Source: Escherichia coli
GTDB lineage: Bacteria > Pseudomonadota > Gammaproteobacteria > Enterobacterales > Enterobacteriaceae
Reading direction: 5' to 3' (one strand)
DNA length: 64,000 nt
NCBI RefSeq assembly: GCF_003334305.1
Contig: NZ_QOWS01000020.1
The number at the start of each line of letters is the position of its first letter. Positions within the stretch are counted from its first letter, which is position 1. Made by a program: the position numbers and the translations under genes. Shown here in pieces: positions 1,138-40,016 of this stretch. The notes under the pieces were generated by a model, which was not told where the DNA came from, did no database searches, and was given only the letters and a program-made list of their open reading frames with translations.

Positions 1138-2529
1138 ATGACAACCGAAACGCGTTCCCTCTATAGTCAACTTCCGGCTATTGATCGCTTATTGCGCGAT
1201 AGCTCCTTCCTTTCTTTGCGTGATACTTATGGTCACACCCGCGTGGTGGAATTGTTGCGTCAGATGCTCGACGAAGCGCGAGAAGTGATTCGTGGCAGCC
1301 AGACGCTGCCTGCGTGGTGTGAAAACTGGGCGCAAGAAGTCGATGCCCGGTTGACGAAAGAAGCGCAGAGCGCGCTGCGTCCGGTGATCAACCTGACGGG
1401 AACCGTGCTGCATACCAACCTTGGGCGAGCTTTACAGGCGGAAGCCGCGGTGGAAGCCGTTGCGCAGGCTATGCGTTCGCCAGTGACCCTCGAGTACGAT
1501 CTGGACGACGCTGGACGCGGACATCGCGATCGTGCGCTGGCGCAGTTGCTGTGCCGCATTACGGGGGCGGAAGATGCCTGTATCGTTAATAACAATGCGG
1601 CGGCGGTGTTATTGATGTTGGCGGCCACTGCCAGCGGGAAAGAGGTGGTGGTTTCTCGCGGCGAACTGGTGGAGATTGGCGGCGCGTTTCGTATTCCCGA
1701 TGTTATGCGTCAGGCAGGCTGCACCCTACACGAAGTAGGGACCACCAACCGCACGCACGCGAATGATTATCGTCAGGCGGTGAATGAAAATACCGCACTG
1801 TTGATGAAAGTACATACCAGTAACTACAGCATTCAGGGGTTCACCAAAGCGATAGATGAAGCGGAACTGGTGGCGCTCGGCAAAGAGCTGGATGTTCCCG
1901 TAGTGACTGATTTAGGCAGTGGCTCGCTGGTCGATCTTAGCCAGTACGGTTTGCCGAAAGAGCCAATGCCGCAGGAGTTGATTGCGGCGGGCGTCAGTCT
2001 GGTGAGTTTCTCCGGCGACAAGTTGTTAGGCGGGCCGCAGGCAGGAATTATTGTTGGTAAAAAAGAGATGATCGCCCGCCTGCAAAGCCACCCGCTGAAG
2101 CGTGCATTACGCGCGGATAAAATGACCCTCGCGGCGCTGGAAGCCACGTTGCGTCTTTATTTACACCCTGAAGCTCTGAGTGAAAAATTACCGACCCTGC
2201 GCCTGCTTACCCGCAGCGCAGAGGTCATTCAAATCCAGGCACAACGTTTACAGGCTCCCCTTGCCGCACATTACGGCGCGGAGTTTGCGGTACAGGTTAT
2301 GCCATGTCTTTCGCAGATTGGCAGTGGTTCGCTGCCGGTTGATCGCCTGCCGAGCGCGGCATTAACGTTTACACCCCATGATGGACGCGGTAGCCACCTT
2401 GAGTCATTAGCCGCCCGCTGGCGTGAATTGCCAGTGCCGGTGATTGGTCGTATTTATGACGGACGATTGTGGCTGGATTTACGCTGCCTTGAAGATGAGC
2501 AACGGTTTTTGGAGATGTTGTTGAAATGA
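1138..2529 (+). CDS. selA: L-seryl-tRNA(Sec) selenium transferase
   Basis: 463-aa ORF with recognisable SelA sequence; stop overlaps selB start (ATGA at 2526-2529). Confidence 0.95.
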
Positions 2530-4370
2530 TTATTGCGACTGCCGGACACGTTGACCACGGCAAAACAACCTTATTGCAGGCGATTACTGGCGTAAATGCT
2601 GACCGTCTGCCGGAAGAAAAAAAGCGCGGCATGACCATCGATCTCGGCTATGCCTACTGGCCGCAGCCGGATGGTCGCGTGCCTGGTTTTATCGACGTAC
2701 CCGGTCATGAAAAGTTTCTTTCCAACATGCTGGCGGGCGTTGGTGGTATCGATCACGCGCTGTTGGTGGTGGCGTGCGATGACGGCGTGATGGCGCAGAC
2801 CCGTGAGCATCTGGCGATTTTGCAGCTGACCGGTAACCCGATGCTGACAGTGGCGCTGACCAAGGCCGATCGCGTGGACGAAGCGCGTGTTGATGAGGTT
2901 GAACGCCAGGTAAAGGAGGTGCTGCGGGAATACGGTTTTGCTGAGGCAAAACTGTTTATCACCGCAGCAACCGAAGGTCGGGGAATTGATGCCCTGCGCG
3001 AGCATCTGCTTCAGTTACCAGGACGTGAACACGCCAGCCAACATAGTTTCCGCCTCGCGATCGACCGCGCATTTACCGTAAAAGGTGCCGGGCTGGTCGT
3101 CACCGGTACGGCGTTAAGCGGGGAAGTGAAGGTAGGCGATTCACTCTGGCTGACTGGTGTAAATAAACCGATGCGTGTACGTGCGCTGCATGCACAAAAC
3201 CAGCCAACAGAAACCGCCCATGCCGGGCAGCGTATCGCGCTTAACATCGCGGGTGATGCGGAAAAAGAGCAGATTAACCGTGGCGACTGGCTGCTTGCCG
3301 ATGCGCCGCCAGAGCCGTTCACACGGGTGATTGTCGAGCTTCAAACCCATACGCCGCTGACCCAGTGGCAGCCGCTGCATATTCACCACGCCGCCAGCCA
3401 CGTTACGGGACGCGTTTCGCTGCTGGAAGATAACCTTGCCGAGCTGGTGTTCGATACGCCGCTGTGGCTGGCGGATAACGATCGCTTAGTGCTGCGCGAT
3501 ATCTCGGCCCGCAACACGCTGGCGGGGGCGCGTGTGGTGATGCTTAACCCGCCGCGTCGCGGTAAACGTAAGCCGGAATATCTGCAATGGCTGGCGTCTC
3601 TTGCACGGGCGCAGAGCGATGCCGATGCGTTATCTGTTCATCTGGAACGCGGCGCGGTTAACCTTGCGGATTTCGCCTGGGCGCGCCAGCTCAACGGCGA
3701 AGGGATGCGCGAATTGCTGCAACAGCCTGGCTATATTCAGGCTGGTTATAGCTTGTTGAATGCGCCGGTTGCCGCTCGCTGGCAACGGAAAATTCTCGAC
3801 ACATTAGCGACTTATCATGAGCAACATCGCGATGAACCTGGGCCTGGGCGCGAACGTCTGCGACGTATGGCGTTGCCAATGGAAGATGAAGCGCTAGTAC
3901 TGTTGCTGATTGAAAAGATGCGCGAAAGCGGCGACATCCTCAGTCATCACGGTTGGCTGCATCTGCCGGATCACAAAGCGGGCTTCAGCGAAGAGCAGCA
4001 GGCCATCTGGCAAAAAGCAGAGCCGCTGTTTGGTGACGAGCCGTGGTGGGTGCGTGATCTGGCAAAAGAGACGGGTACCGACGAGCAGGCAATGCGCCTG
4101 ACGCTACGCCAGGCGGCGCAGCAAGGAATAATTACCGCGATCGTCAAAGATCGTTATTACCGTAACGATCGGATTGTCGAATTTGCCAATATGATCCGCG
4201 ATCTCGATCAGGAGTGTGGTTCAACCTGCGCGGCGGATTTCCGCGATCGCTTAGGCGTAGGCCGAAAGCTGGCAATTCAGATTCTGGAATATTTTGACCG
4301 CATTGGCTTTACGCGTCGTCGTGGAAATGATCATTTATTGCGCGACGCATTATTATTTCCGGAAAAATAA
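2526..4370 (+). CDS. selB: selenocysteine-specific translation elongation factor
   Basis: 614-aa ORF; N-terminal GTPase motifs [19 protein letters not shown]; translationally coupled to selA. Confidence 0.95.
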
Positions 4371-4423
4371 GGAAATGATTAATTAATTTTTAAAATAAAT
4401 TAATACAAATTTCTTATGATTTT

Positions 4424-4463
4424 AAAAAAAGCACATTGTTTAATGAATACAATGTGCTTTTTA
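4424..4463. terminator. hairpin with flanking A- and T-tracts in AT-rich selB-yiaY spacer (bidirectional-looking intrinsic terminator)
   Basis: aaaaaaaGCACATTG...CAATGTGCttttt read directly; 9-bp stem. Confidence 0.55.
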
Positions 4464-4559
4464 TTAGATTAATTTTGATAATTAATAATAATGATCATGT
4501 TTTCGAATGAAAATCCTCAGTAAGCTGCCCACCCTTTTTTACACTTTCAGGAGTGTGTT

Positions 4560-5711
4560 ATGGCATCTTCAACTTTCTTTATTCCTTCTGTGAATGTCAT
4601 CGGCGCTGATTCATTGACTGATGCAATGAATATGATGGCAGATTATGGATTTACCCGTACCTTAATTGTCACTGACAGTATGTTAACGAAATTAGGTATG
4701 GCGGGCGATGTGCAAAAAGCACTGGAAGAACGCAATATTTTTAGCGTTATTTATGATGGCACCCAACCTAACCCCACCACGGAAAACGTCGCCGCAGGTT
4801 TGAAATTACTTAAAGAGAATAATTGCGATAGCGTGATCTCCTTAGGCGGTGGTTCTCCACACGACTGCGCAAAAGGTATTGCGCTGGTGGCAGCCAATGG
4901 CGGCGATATTCGCGATTACGAAGGCGTTGACCGCTCTGCAAAACCGCAGCTGCCGATGATCGCCATCAATACCACGGCGGGTACGGCCTCTGAAATGACC
5001 CGTTTCTGCATCATCACTGACGAAGCGCGTCATATCAAAATGGCGATTGTTGATAAACATGTCACTCCGCTGCTTTCTGTCAATGACTCCTCTCTGATGA
5101 TTGGTATGCCGAAGTCACTGACCGCCGCAACGGGTATGGATGCCTTAACGCACGCTATCGAAGCGTATGTTTCTATTGCCGCCACGCCGATCACTGACGC
5201 TTGTGCACTGAAAGCCGTGACCATGATTGCCGAAAATCTGCCGTTAGCCGTTGAAGATGGCAGTAATGCGAAAGCGCGTGAAGCAATGGCTTATGCCCAG
5301 TTCCTCGCCGGTATGGCGTTCAATAATGCTTCTCTGGGTTATGTTCATGCGATGGCGCACCAGCTGGGCGGTTTCTACAACCTGCCACACGGTGTATGTA
5401 ACGCCGTTTTGCTGCCGCATGTTCAGGTATTCAACAGCAAAGTCGCCGCCGCACGTCTGCGTGACTGTGCCGCTGCAATGGGCGTGAACGTGACAGGTAA
5501 AAACGATGCGGAAGGTGCTGAAGCCTGCATTAACGCCATCCGTGAACTGGCGAAGAAAGTGGATATCCCGGCAGGCCTACGCGACCTGAACGTGAAAGAA
5601 GAAGATTTCGCGGTTCTGGCGACTAATGCCCTGAAAGATGCCTGTGGTTTTACTAACCCGATCCAGGCAACTCACGAAGAAATTGTGGCGATTTATCGCG
5701 CAGCGATGTAA
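4560..5711 (+). CDS. yiaY: iron-containing (group III) alcohol dehydrogenase
   Basis: 383-aa ORF; Fe-ADH family sequence ([13 protein letters not shown] motif); synteny. Confidence 0.85.
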
Positions 5712-5875
5712 TCATCATTTCCACAACGGCTGGCAAATTGTCAGCCGCTTTTTCAACTATCTCTGTAACCCTTGCCCGTAAATTCGTGATAGCTGTCGTA
5801 AAGCTGTTACCGACTGGCGAAGATTTCGCCAGTCACGTCTACCCTTGTTATACCTCACACCGCAAGGAGACGATC

Positions 5876-7414
5876 ATGACCAATAATCCCCCTTCAGCAC
5901 AGATTAAGCCCGGCGAGTATGGTTTCCCCCTCAAGTTAAAAGCCCGCTATGACAACTTTATTGGCGGCGAATGGGTAGCCCCTGCCGACGGCGAGTATTA
6001 CCAGAATCTGACGCCGGTGACCGGGCAGCTGCTGTGCGAAGTGGCGTCTTCGGGCAAACGAGACATCGATCTGGCGCTGGATGCTGCGCACAAAGTGAAA
6101 GATAAATGGGCGCACACCTCGGTGCAGGATCGCGCGGCGATTCTGTTTAAGATTGCCGATCGAATGGAACAAAACCTTGAGCTGTTAGCGACGGCTGAAA
6201 CCTGGGATAACGGCAAACCCATTCGCGAAACCAGTGCTGCCGACGTGCCGCTGGCGATTGACCATTTTCGCTATTTCGCCTCGTGTATTCGGGCGCAGGA
6301 AGGTGGGATCAGTGAAGTTGATAGCGAAACCGTGGCCTATCATTTCCATGAACCGTTAGGCGTGGTGGGGCAGATTATCCCGTGGAACTTCCCGCTGCTG
6401 ATGGCGAGCTGGAAAATGGCTCCCGCGCTGGCGGCGGGCAACTGTGTGGTGCTGAAACCCGCACGTCTTACCCCGCTTTCTGTACTACTGCTAATGGAAA
6501 TCGTCGGTGATTTACTGCCGCCGGGCGTGGTGAACGTGGTCAACGGCGCAGGTGGGGAAATTGGCGAATATCTGGCGACCTCGAAACGCATCGCCAAAGT
6601 GGCGTTTACCGGCTCAACGGAAGTGGGCCAACAAATTATGCAATACGCCACGCAAAACATTATTCCGGTGACGCTGGAGCTGGGCGGCAAATCGCCAAAT
6701 ATCTTCTTTGCTGATGTGATGGATGAAGAAGATGCCTTTTTCGATAAAGCGCTGGAAGGCTTTGCACTGTTTGCCTTTAACCAGGGTGAAGTTTGCACCT
6801 GTCCGAGTCGTGCCTTAGTGCAGGAGTCAATCTACGAACGCTTTATGGAACGCGCCATCCGCCGTGTCGAAAGCATTCGCAGCGGTAACCCACTCGACAG
6901 CGTGACGCAAATGGGCGCGCAGGTTTCTCACGGGCAACTGGAAACCATCCTCAACTACATTGATATCGGTAAAAAAGAGGGCGCAGACGTGCTCACCGGC
7001 GGGCGGCGCAAGCTGCTGGAAGGTGAACTGAAAGACGGCTACTACCTCGAACCGACGATTCTGTTTGGTCAGAACAATATGCGGGTGTTCCAGGAGGAGA
7101 TTTTTGGCCCGGTGCTGGCGGTGACCACCTTCAAAACGATGGAAGAAGCGCTGGAGCTGGCGAACGATACGCAATATGGCCTGGGCGCGGGCGTCTGGAG
7201 CCGCAACGGTAATCTGGCCTATAAGATGGGGCGCGGCATACAGGCTGGGCGCGTGTGGACCAACTGTTATCACGCTTACCCGGCACATGCTGCGTTTGGT
7301 GGCTACAAACAATCAGGTATCGGTCGCGAAACCCACAAGATGATGCTGGAGCATTACCAGCAAACCAAGTGCCTGCTGGTGAGCTACTCGGATAAACCGT
7401 TGGGGCTGTTCTGA
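5876..7414 (+). CDS. aldB: NADP-dependent aldehyde dehydrogenase B
   Basis: ORF track starts at 5738 but conserved protein begins [11 protein letters not shown] at ATG 5876 with SD aaggaga upstream; 512 aa; ALDH catalytic motifs. Confidence 0.9.
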
Positions 7415-7632: not shown

Positions 7633-7776
7633 TTAATCTCGCGTTTCGATGGTGAGCGGGCGAACCAGGCCGTAAATCACCATTGGTGATCCGAGGCCAA
7701 TCAGCAATAAACGGTAGATAATTGAAGGTTTAATACGCTTAATCTGTACTGTGGATGTTTTACTGGAGTTATTCAT
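7633..7776 (-). CDS. hypothetical small single-pass membrane protein (47 aa from internal ATG; ORF track gives 70 aa to 7845)
   Basis: ORF MNNSSKTSTVQIKRIKPSIIYRLLLIGLGSPMVIYGLVRPLTIETRD with one ~20-residue hydrophobic helix; no obvious SD; intergenic location. Confidence 0.2.
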   Translation of the reverse strand: MNNSSKTSTVQIKRIKPSIIYRLLLIGLGSPMVIYGLVRPLTIETRD

Positions 7777-7958
7777 TAGTTTGGCCAATAGTTCCACTAT
7801 TTCAATATGATAAACCTCGTCCTGTTGAAAAACCAGACAGCACATTTAAGAAAGTATATAAAAAACAATATGTCGTTATATAAATAAGGAAATTGCACTG
7901 CATCATGGCATTTCATAATATGCGTTAATTGTTCTTTTTTATATTCTTTGAGGGAAAT

Positions 7959-9424: not shown

Positions 9425-10395
9425 TCTTCGCTTTCCGCCGCTTGTTCAGGCCGCAGTTGCTGCGACTGAGCAAGCTGGTGGCGAATTTCACGCAGCATTT
9501 CATCCAGCACATACTGGACCCGCCAGGGCTGGTATTCCCGTTTACGGAAGATAGCCACCAGATCCAGCCACCATTCATACGGGTGCTGAAAGCAGGGCAC
9601 CAGCGTGCCGTCTTGCAGATCGCTCTGCACACTTTTGTCTGGCGCAAACACAATCCCCAGGTGATTTCGTGCCAGCTCCAGCGCCGATTGCGTGTTATCG
9701 CAAACGTAATTTCCCTTCACGCGATAATCCCGCACCTCTTTACTCCCGGCGACGTTGAAGCGCCAGATATTCGCGTCATCAATCATCATCGAGTCGATCA
9801 AAATACAGGAGTGATGTTCGAGTTCGTCAGGACGGCTAATAGGATGTTTCTCAAGATAGCGCTGGCTGGCATAAGCGGTTACGGCATATTGGGTAATAAA
9901 ACTGGCAACCAGCGATTCATCTTTTGGTGGAGCGTAGCTGATTAAAACATCACAATCATCAGGAAATTCGACGCCTTCATAAAAGGCATTACGCTCAAGA
10001 TTGCAGGTTTTTAGCGATAAGGTGATATCACCGATATCTTTAATTTTATCGATTACATGTTTGGATAAATAGGTAATTATGCCGGTTGGGGCGTAGATGG
10101 TGACCCGACCACGTTTCTCATGCTTATAATCTGCAATAAAATTATTAAGCTGCTCGTTTCTGTCCAGCATGTCGTTGATGTACGGTAACAGCGCGGTGCC
10201 AAAAGGTGTGAGCATCAGTTGTCGGGTGGTTCGGTCAAAAACTTTTAAACCCACTTTTGATTCAAAATCAGCAAGATATTTGCTGACGTTGGCCTGTGCG
10301 ATGCCAAGTACAGTCGCGGCATGGCTGATATTTTCACTGGCAGCGATTACCGAGATAATTTTTAACTCCCGGTACTTAAGTTGTAATTTTGTCAT
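9421..10395 (-). CDS. yiaU: LysR-family transcriptional regulator
   Basis: 324 aa; N-terminal HTH typical of LysR; 3' end overlaps yiaV 3' end by 4 bp. Confidence 0.85.
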
Positions 10396-10518
10396 CGCAA
10401 CAGCCCAATTATATATAATTTTATATATTACTATATAAATATGAATCTTGCATCGGAGAAATTGTAAGCATTATTATGCCGACTCTTTTTTATCTTATTT
10501 TAAAATGGAATACCGGAC

Positions 10519-37902: not shown

Positions 37903-39972
37903 ATGTCTGAGAAAACTTTTCTGGTGGAAATCGGCACTGAAGAGCTGCCACCAAAAGCACTGCGCAGCCTGGCTGAGTCCTTTGCTGCGAATTTTACTGC
38001 GGAGCTGGATAACGCTGGCCTCGCACACGGCACCGTTCAATGGTTTGCTGCTCCGCGTCGTCTGGCGCTGAAAGTAGCTAACCTGGCGGAAGCGCAACCG
38101 GATCGTGAAATCGAAAAACGCGGCCCGGCGATTGCCCAGGCGTTCGACGCTGAAGGCAAACCGAGCAAAGCGGCAGAAGGTTGGGCGCGTGGTTGCGGTA
38201 TTACCGTTGACCAGGCTGAGCGTCTGACTACCGATAAAGGCGAATGGCTGCTGTATCGCGCCCATGTGAAGGGCGAAAGCACCGAAGCACTGCTGCCGAA
38301 TATGGTTGCGACTTCTCTGGCGAAACTGCCGATCCCGAAACTGATGCGTTGGGGCGCAAGCGACGTGCACTTCGTGCGTCCGGTGCACACCGTGACCCTG
38401 CTGCTGGGCGACAAAGTCATTCCGGCAACCATTCTGGGCATTCAGTCCGATCGCGTGATTCGCGGCCACCGCTTTATGGGCGAACCGGAATTCACCATCG
38501 ACAACGCCGATCAGTATCCGGAAATTCTGCGTGAGCGCGGGAAAGTCATCGCCGATTACGAAGAACGTAAAGCGAAGATTAAAGCCGATGCCGAAGAAGC
38601 AGCGCGTAAGATTGGCGGTAACGCTGACTTAAGCGAAAGCCTGCTGGAAGAAGTGGCTTCGCTGGTGGAGTGGCCGGTCGTTCTGACCGCAAAATTCGAA
38701 GAGAAATTCCTCGCGGTGCCGGCTGAAGCGCTGGTTTACACCATGAAAGGTGACCAGAAATACTTCCCGGTGTATGCGAACGACGGCAAACTGCTGCCGA
38801 ACTTTATCTTCGTTGCCAACATCGAATCGAAAGATCCGCAGCAGATTATCTCCGGTAACGAGAAAGTCGTTCGTCCGCGTCTGGCGGATGCCGAGTTCTT
38901 CTTCAACACCGACCGTAAAAAACGTCTGGAAGATAACCTGCCGCGCCTGCAAACCGTGCTGTTCCAGCAACAGCTGGGTACGCTGCGTGACAAAACTGAC
39001 CGCATCCAGGCGCTGGCTGGCTGGATTGCTGAACAGATTGGCGCTGACGTTAACCACGCAACCCGTGCGGGCCTGCTGTCTAAGTGTGACCTGATGACCA
39101 ACATGGTCTTCGAGTTCACCGACACCCAGGGCGTTATGGGGATGCACTATGCGCGTCACGATGGCGAAGCGGAAGATGTCGCGGTGGCGCTGAATGAGCA
39201 GTATCAGCCGCGCTTTGCCGGTGATGACCTGCCGTCTAACCCGGTAGCCTGTGCGCTGGCGATTGCTGACAAGATGGATACTCTGGCGGGTATCTTCGGT
39301 ATCGGCCAGCATCCGAAAGGCGACAAAGACCCGTTTGCGCTGCGTCGTGCCGCACTTGGCGTGCTGCGAATTATCGTTGAGAAGAACCTCAACCTTGATC
39401 TGCAAACGCTGACCGAAGAAGCGGTGCGTCTGTATGGCGATAAGCTGACTAATGCCAACGTAGTTGATGATGTTATCGACTTTATGCTCGGTCGCTTCCG
39501 CGCCTGGTATCAGGACGAAGGTTATACCGTTGACACCATCCAGGCGGTACTGGCGCGTCGTCCGACTCGTCCGGCTGATTTCGATGCCCGTATGAAAGCG
39601 GTATCGCATTTCCGTACCCTGGATGCAGCTGCTGCACTGGCGGCGGCGAACAAACGTGTATCTAACATTCTGGCGAAATCTGACGAAGTGCTGAGCGACC
39701 GCGTGAATGCCTCTACCCTGAAAGAGCCGGAAGAAATTAAACTGGCGATGCAGGTTGTGGTGCTACGTGACAAGCTGGAGCCGTACTTTGCGGAAGGTCG
39801 TTACCAGGATGCGCTGGTCGAACTGGCAGAGCTGCGTGAGCCGGTTGATGCTTTCTTCGATAAAGTGATGGTCATGGTTGATGACAAAGAATTGCGTCTC
39901 AACCGTCTGACCATGCTGGAGAAACTGCGCGAACTGTTCCTGCGCGTTGCGGATATTTCGCTGTTGCAGTAA
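37903..39972 (+). CDS. glyS: glycine--tRNA ligase beta subunit
   Basis: 689 aa; 9 nt downstream of glyQ. Confidence 0.95.
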
Positions 39973-39986
39973 TAACGCCGTTATTA

Positions 39987-40016
39987 AAAAGCCTGCCATC
40001 TGGCAGGCTTTTTTTA
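39987..40016 (+). terminator. rho-independent terminator of glyQS
   Basis: aaaaaGCCTGCCatctGGCAGGCttttttt read directly. Confidence 0.85.

Follow-up and report, generated by a model that had tools for sequence, protein, structure and literature searches.

What does the DNA between selB and yiaY of Escherichia coli do, and why is it so poor in G+C? The window analysed here, i.e. a stretch of 64,000 nucleotides of an E. coli contig (accession number NZ_QOWS01000020.1), carries according to its ORF map yibF (432-1040), selA (1138-2529), selB (2526-4370), yiaY (4560-5711) and then aldB, all on the + strand. The gene names selB and yiaY follow RefSeq, as annotated in E. coli genomes that are identical or nearly so. 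Since selA and selB overlap, they were regarded as one operon, selAB. A 431-bp query around the spacer matches 5,411 of 5,426 complete E. coli genomes, in which the annotation is always selB followed by yiaY. The segment in question, the gene behind it and its longest A/T run are:

4371-4559, + strand: selB-yiaY intergenic spacer, 189 bp with 23 % G+C, more AT-rich than any other segment of the 64-kb window
4560-5711, + strand: yiaY, annotated as L-threonine dehydrogenase (Fe-containing alcohol dehydrogenase)
4378-4405, unstranded: longest pure A/T run of the window (28 bp), within the rapidly evolving distal spacer

A first-pass annotation of this DNA, made from the sequence alone, had called the spacer far more AT-rich than its surroundings, and this was borne out: its G+C content is 23.3 %, compared to 51.1 % for the window, and is the lowest in the 64 kb. 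Among the ~63,800 segments of 189 bp, 74 (0.12 %) are as low in G+C, every one of them overlapping the selB-yiaY spacer locus, and the lowest value over 100 bp (14 %) is reached in the segment starting at 4373, i.e. in the spacer core. The run taattaatttttaaaataaattaatacaaattt, quoted in the earlier annotation, was found at 4379-4411. TpA steps are likewise frequent (19 vs a median of 8), placing the spacer in the top 1.8 % of the window. The first ~250 bp of yiaY are also AT-rich (38-45 % G+C), and the gene as a whole has an ordinary G+C content of about 51 %.

Next in AT content after the spacer rank four other patches of the window (7706-7856, 10321-10430, 34412 and 39953-40013), with 19-30 % G+C over 100-189 bp, and the patch near 10340-10430 holds the most TpA steps of the whole window. 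Small ORFs of 24-30 aa with TTG or ATG starts lie within the spacer; they were rejected as genes, being unconserved between E. coli alleles and lacking ribosome-binding sites.

The distribution of the spacer was followed in 80 loci around SelB homologues, with one genome per species. In 22 of them, selB is followed by yiaY after a spacer of 143-189 bp; these loci come from Escherichia, Citrobacter, Kluyvera, two Enterobacter, Intestinirhabdus, Pseudocitrobacter, Pluralibacter and another Enterobacteriaceae genome. Spacers of up to 189 bp between the two genes have 23-38 % G+C in at least seven genera. In species without yiaY, the 150 bp past selB have 47-64 % G+C, except in Buttiauxella (33-39 %); apart from this yiaY-less genus, AT-rich DNA past selB was confined to loci in which yiaY, intact or decayed, comes next. 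Where yiaY is missing, selB often reaches, within 87-106 bp, the conserved upstream region of aldB, which in E. coli is located between yiaY and aldB (window 5784-5877). This upstream region contains the palindrome GACTGGCGAAGATTTCGCCAGTC, and yiaY has a terminator of its own at 5718-5752, which is canonical and GC-rich (GGCTGGCAAATTGTCAGCC followed by T5).

Presence and absence of the unit can be seen within a single species, i.e. Enterobacter asburiae TN152 has the spacer plus yiaY and strain AEB30 is without them, the junctions being at the stop codons. In Escherichia sp. MOD1-EC7003 and Citrobacter sp. Cu233, yiaY is decayed by multiple internal deletions, and the AT-rich spacer and its hairpin persist. 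The spacer and yiaY thus behave as one unit of gain and loss, a pattern that is compatible with deletion in the yiaY-less lineages as well as with insertion.

Two spacer alleles are found within E. coli, the distal spacer (window 4371-4496) being only 76 % identical between them vs 96-97 % for the flanking selB and yiaY; with the 431-bp query, about 1,170 of the 5,411 matching genomes show 80-90 % identity, and in about 50 of them all the locus is covered only partly. In E. coli 2017.15.02CC, an IS1 element is located exactly at the selB stop codon (equivalent to window 4368-4371), where the junction recreates a TAG stop, and the spacer, yiaY, aldB and the genes up to part of yiaL are deleted. 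Since the AT-richness has been kept in at least seven genera despite the turnover of the sequence, selection on composition is suggested.

The first half of the spacer is dominated by a hairpin, which comprises the following elements:

4426-4462, + strand: stem-loop of the putative selAB intrinsic terminator, from fold energy and covariation
4424-4430, + strand: A7 tract 5' of the hairpin, part-paired with the T-tract; provides U7 as a tail in - strand RNA; differs among alleles and genera
4458-4465, + strand: T-tract TTTTTATT 3' of the stem, the expected release site of selAB transcripts; kept in most genera

Positions 4426-4439 pair with 4449-4462 around a 9-nt loop (4440-4448), the T5 tract being 4458-4462. 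The core palindrome (4431-4439 with 4449-4457), which has 4 G-C pairs in 9, reaches -10.6 kcal/mol alone, and the full hairpin folds with -16.8 kcal/mol on the + strand and -15.9 kcal/mol on the - strand (z about -5.8; 0 of 200 shuffled sequences fold as well). It lies 55-95 nt past the selB stop codon on the sense strand. A consensus terminator scan did not call it, because the scan's loop limit is 8 nt and the loop has 9 nt. Permissive E-value searches of the hairpin against Rfam families gave best scores of at most 23 bits, with gathering thresholds of 37-211, i.e. chance matches, and an origin from a mobile element or repeat was rejected, the locus being single-copy (median of one place per E. 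coli genome).

Every one of the 22 short selB-yiaY spacers has a hairpin at the matching relative position, in most cases followed by at least five T. In an alignment of 13 homologous but distinct versions (from Escherichia, Citrobacter, Kluyvera and Intestinirhabdus), RNAalifold predicted 11 pairs, eight of which show compensatory double changes; 96.5 % of the alignment cells are paired, and on none of five measures did any of 500 shuffles attain the observed values. When, as a control, the 3' partner was slid by 1-3 columns, pairing fell to 22-55 %. Even within the species, the B2-type allele (strains E5 and XDL) carries two double compensatory changes within its stem and retains CTTTTTATTA, but its A-run is gone, with TTAAGAAG in place of AAAAAAAG.

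Since the stem covaries and the T-tract is kept, but the A-tract is not, the hairpin with its T-tract is best read as a + strand intrinsic terminator of selAB that is not obligately symmetric, at which the operon's transcripts would end. The earlier description as a symmetric terminator, flanked by an A-tract and a T-tract, is thus right as to the hairpin, the A7 and the T5, while the symmetry is allele-specific: among the sequences compared, the mirror-image A-tract belongs to the present allele and some genera only. In support of a terminator, selB transcripts are measurable in MG1655 and yiaY is untranscribed, as would be expected if the two genes are effectively insulated from each other. 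Pointing in the other direction, the stem contains more A/T than is usual for a terminator, the loop is long, and the tables of the one Term-seq dataset consulted (Adams et al. 2021, PMC7815308) list neither a 3' end at the expected position of ~3,757,920 (3,757,90x-95x) nor an entry for selB, which could reflect low expression of selAB.

The hairpin resembles known intrinsic terminators in having a stem-loop directly followed by a U-run past the last gene of an operon, and in a stem kept by compensatory substitutions; in the present allele, it also resembles bidirectional terminators, in that an A-tract mirrors the U-tract. It is unlike both in its unusually AT-rich stem, its 9-nt loop and its unconserved A-tract. 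A true bidirectional terminator, the A7 of which (U7 on the - strand) would halt antisense or spurious transcripts arising in the AT-rich DNA or in yiaY and running back into selB, is an alternative that we regard as unlikely. The - strand folds about equally well (-15.9 kcal/mol) and with the longer U-run, several genera retain at least 4-5 A before the stem, and the - strand carries the sole sigma-70-like match between 4200 and 4700 (4513 to 4485), which, read in this direction, immediately precedes the hairpin. Unlike the genes around typical bidirectional terminators, however, selB and yiaY are co-directional (both on the + strand) rather than convergent, and the A-tract is degraded in the B2-type E. 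coli allele, in E. albertii and in most Citrobacter, whereas the T-tract is retained. The sigma-70-like match itself consists of TTTTCA, a 17-bp spacer and TATTAT and is directed into the hairpin with its U7 tail; it could give rise to an antisense RNA of ~50 nt or be a spurious promoter of the kind that is common in AT-rich DNA.

The region downstream of the hairpin, with the putative core promoter of yiaY, contains the following elements:

4475-4488, unstranded: weak FNR-like box TTGATAATTAATAA, 2 mismatches to TTGAT-N4-ATCAA, ~51 bp from the putative transcription start
4493-4503, + strand: GATCATGTTTT block, its GATC and TTT invariant in 23 spacers; overlaps the expected -35 or activator position and contains a Dam site
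4521-4526, + strand: TAAGCT, a -10-like hexamer; TAnnCT is invariant across genera and at a fixed distance of 28 bp from GATC
4549-4553, + strand: Shine-Dalgarno sequence AGGAG of yiaY, within a small predicted 5'-UTR hairpin (about 4541-4558)

The promoter comparison included 23 spacers from at least seven genera. GATC (4493-4496) and TTT (4500-4502) are invariant, and a fourth T (4503) is kept in at least 80 % of the 23 sequences. Ahead of the ATG, an AGGA-type ribosome-binding site keeps its position, with none of its bases invariant, and outside the invariant promoter positions the rest of the spacer is scrambled. We infer from this pattern that TAnnCT is the -10 hexamer and that transcription of yiaY would start near 4533. 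A sigma-70 promoter scan of the + strand from 4200 to 4700 gave no match, the -35 region being poor, and a search for a mapped yiaY transcription start found none. Two predicted promoters, yiaYp4 and yiaYp6, are reportedly listed in a 2018 NAR paper.

A poor -35 region and an invariant block at the activator position raise the question of which regulator is involved, and here the physiology and the sequence diverge. In Shigella flexneri, yiaY is up by 3.18 log2 units anaerobically and down by 2.73 in Δfnr; since it is induced anaerobically in Shigella, yiaY is inducible and not a dead gene. This FNR dependence is unmatched in K-12, i.e. the tables of Myers et al. (2013, PMC3688515), those for Δhns ΔstpA included, contain neither an FNR peak nor a predicted FNR site at yiaY. 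An FNR class II box near -41.5 was not found either, the best box having 2 mismatches and lying at about -51. This box (4475-4488) is probably a chance occurrence in AT-rich DNA and is unconserved outside Escherichia. Consensus scans for FNR, CRP, IHF, Fis, ArcA, NarL, Lrp and sigma-54 gave weak, AT-driven matches only, none of them conserved across genera, and yiaY is not mentioned in the supplements of the ArcA ChIP paper.

The extreme composition of the spacer had led to the earlier proposal that an H-NS-type nucleoid protein binds there and may silence yiaY. Published genome-wide data allow this to be followed at the locus itself, where two regions are of particular relevance:

3746-5351, unstranded: aerobic K-12 H-NS ChIP-chip region, mapped to the window from PMC3688515 Table S3 by coordinate conversion
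4959, + strand: window equivalent of a Rho termination region inside yiaY (NC_000913.3 position 3,757,428, - strand; PMC7815308 Supplementary file 2)

Myers et al. (2013) reported H-NS regions at 3,755,059-3,756,664 with O2 and 3,755,039-3,757,215 without O2 (PMC3688515 Table S3), and an IHF region at 3,756,423-3,756,791 in the same tables. Their coordinates are those of U00096.2, with an offset of 1,977 bp to NC_000913.3; the 'aer/ygjG' peak at 3,217,359, used as a landmark for the version, is located between aer and patA in NC_000913.3 only if the offset is added. The spacer corresponds to 3,757,828-3,758,016 in NC_000913.3 and 3,755,851-3,756,039 in U00096.2. On this basis, the anaerobic H-NS region maps to about 3195-5371 of the window, and both H-NS regions span the whole spacer and extend ~800-1000 bp into yiaY and 600-1200 bp into selB. 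The aerobic region has its midpoint at ~4549, i.e. inside the spacer. The IHF region maps inside selB (about 3619-3987).

Expression data point in the same direction. In the study of Myers et al., yiaY shows an O2 response only in Δhns ΔstpA, with a ratio of 0.15 (+O2 over -O2; PMC3688515 Table S11), and is absent from the wild-type FNR and O2 tables. In enteropathogenic E. coli (EPEC), Ler, an H-NS paralogue and H-NS antagonist, activates yiaY 5-fold in mid-log and 9-fold in late log phase, and the other targets outside the island that were found alongside it include leuO and pagP, which are classic H-NS targets (PMC3891560). The supplements of Srinivasan 2015 do not list yiaY, and a direct fold change between Δhns and wild-type was not found for it in the published tables consulted. 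Termination by Rho inside a gene is typical of H-NS-bound genes. A Rho termination region was indeed reported ~400 nt into the yiaY ORF (Adams et al. 2021, PMC7815308). The proposal is therefore supported by published K-12 ChIP-chip and expression data; H-NS occupies the spacer, and yiaY is not constitutively expressed.

The best match of the spacer to the high-affinity H-NS motif TCGATAAATT is only 8 of 10 positions (TAGATTAATT at 4465-4474). Such a motif is not obligatory for H-NS binding. The 28-bp A/T run at 4378-4405 is a likely nucleation tract, and we infer that H-NS would nucleate on the spacer itself rather than on the flanking AT-rich start of yiaY.

It could be argued that H-NS is only a passive occupant, i.e. 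that the spacer is a terminator with a weak promoter and nothing else, its AT-richness being non-coding drift, and that yiaY is silent for want of an activator or inducer. The poor -35 region with the conserved block at the activator position would agree with this, as would the strong FNR-dependent anaerobic induction in Shigella, and the distal AT-rich part evolves as fast (76 % identity within E. coli) as expected if it were unconstrained. However, O2-dependent expression of yiaY appears only on deletion of hns and stpA, expression of Ler alone raises yiaY 5-9 fold, and the low G+C content (23-38 %) was retained in at least seven genera despite sequence turnover. Taken together, we consider a merely passive role of H-NS rather improbable.

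A role of the spacer mainly as curved DNA, or as a Fis- or UP-element-like upstream activating region for yiaY, rather than as a silencer, is very improbable in our view. The first-pass annotation had counted the spacer among curved-DNA and Fis-type regions. According to a wedge model, its curvature peaks at ~19 degrees, around the 90-94th percentile, where the window maximum is 36.9 degrees. Predicted curvature is thus only moderately above average, but the spacer is not singled out, and the search for the Fis consensus GNNYAWWWWWTRNNC with up to one mismatch found no match in it. Several A/T tracts, local curvature peaks near the 93rd percentile and an end-to-end ratio that ranks at the 5.6th percentile within the window would favour such a role; against it stand the 12 other sites in the window that score far higher in curvature, the lack of a Fis consensus match, and the silence of yiaY in growth conditions where Fis is abundant.

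The invariant GATC of the promoter lies close to a second group of Dam sites:

4139-4248, unstranded: seven clustered GATC (Dam) sites in the 3'-terminal part of selB, shortly before the spacer and outside it

An eighth GATC follows at 4329-4332, and the rest of selB has about one GATC per 250 bp. The cluster is conserved across the Enterobacteriaceae, with 5-10 sites in the last 250 nt of selB, yiaY-less species included; in Kluyvera, it is nearly absent (1-3 sites) though the protein sequence there is unchanged. A 2025 study of K-12 described a '7 Dam site cluster' with dam-dependent occupancy by RNA polymerase (RNAP) and protein, the binding protein not being identified. The promoter GATC (4493-4496) may be a transcription-factor site (TGATCA) or a Dam-sensitive position. 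Control of yiaY by Dam methylation or SeqA through this GATC and the seven-site cluster is hardly credible: the GATC has stayed invariant from genus to genus while the spacer around it is scrambled, and the neighbouring cluster is conserved across the family, with RNAP and protein occupancy that change in a dam-dependent manner, but yiaY is untranscribed in the wild-type, Δdam, Δdcm and the double mutant, the GATC may be just part of a transcription-factor site, and the cluster is also found in species without yiaY. We would give as little credence to the related idea that the promoter GATC and the 7-8 sites located 250-350 bp upstream form a Dam/SeqA-sensitive switch gating the escape of yiaY from H-NS silencing. 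Such a switch, if true, would be epigenetic or replication-linked and would account for the dam-dependent protein occupancy at the selB cluster.

In summary, the spacer very probably combines the 3' untranslated region and terminator of selAB with an H-NS-silenced, activator-dependent promoter of yiaY. Its first half would be the selAB 3' untranslated region, ending in the Rho-independent terminator at 4426-4462 with its T-tract, which would halt selAB transcripts ahead of yiaY. The last ~70 bp would constitute the core promoter and leader of yiaY, with GATC-N3-TTT at the -35 or activator position, TAnnCT, a start at ~4533 and AGGAG. Recruitment of H-NS (and StpA) would be due to the very high AT content of the spacer and the opening few hundred bp of yiaY, and the resulting filament of 1.6-2.2 kb, centred on the spacer, would hold the weak, activator-dependent promoter off under standard growth. 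Transcripts that escape would be stopped by Rho ~400 nt into yiaY, and expression would be expected when H-NS is removed or antagonized (Δhns ΔstpA, Ler) and under anaerobiosis.

The locus conforms to known mechanisms. The bulk of the functional evidence could already be found in published genome-wide tables, though the locus is not known to have been described on its own. Comparable H-NS-silenced, activator-dependent promoters are that of hlyE, with FNR and CRP opposing H-NS, the 'category 7' FNR targets of Myers et al., which are unmasked in Δhns ΔstpA, and the Ler-relieved LEE promoters. Like these, yiaY has an AT-rich promoter in an H-NS region of 1.6-2.2 kb, anaerobic induction visible only without H-NS and StpA, activation by Ler and Rho termination inside the silenced gene; unlike such FNR targets, it has no FNR ChIP peak or good FNR box in the tables of Myers et al. 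The comparison with targets of xenogeneic silencing is similarly mixed. While the AT-rich spacer and yiaY come and go together between selB and aldB, as such targets may do, AT-richness is confined to the spacer of ~190 bp and the beginning of yiaY, mobility genes or junction repeats are lacking, and yiaY, with ~51 % G+C, belongs to the core genome of several genera and to no obvious foreign island.

What the analysis yields is an annotation, backed by evidence, of the terminator of selAB and the core promoter of yiaY; its practical value is small. The gene yiaY is often deleted in metabolic engineering. For the biology of E. coli, the proposed arrangement would account for the silence in laboratory K-12 of yiaY, a cryptic Fe-dependent alcohol/threonine dehydrogenase, and offers a compact example of a short AT-rich intergenic segment that lies beside a gene of normal composition and is central to a kilobase-scale H-NS region. 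What is mildly unusual about the locus is the invariant promoter GATC near the conserved Dam cluster of selB, as well as an AT composition that has been preserved despite rapid sequence turnover.
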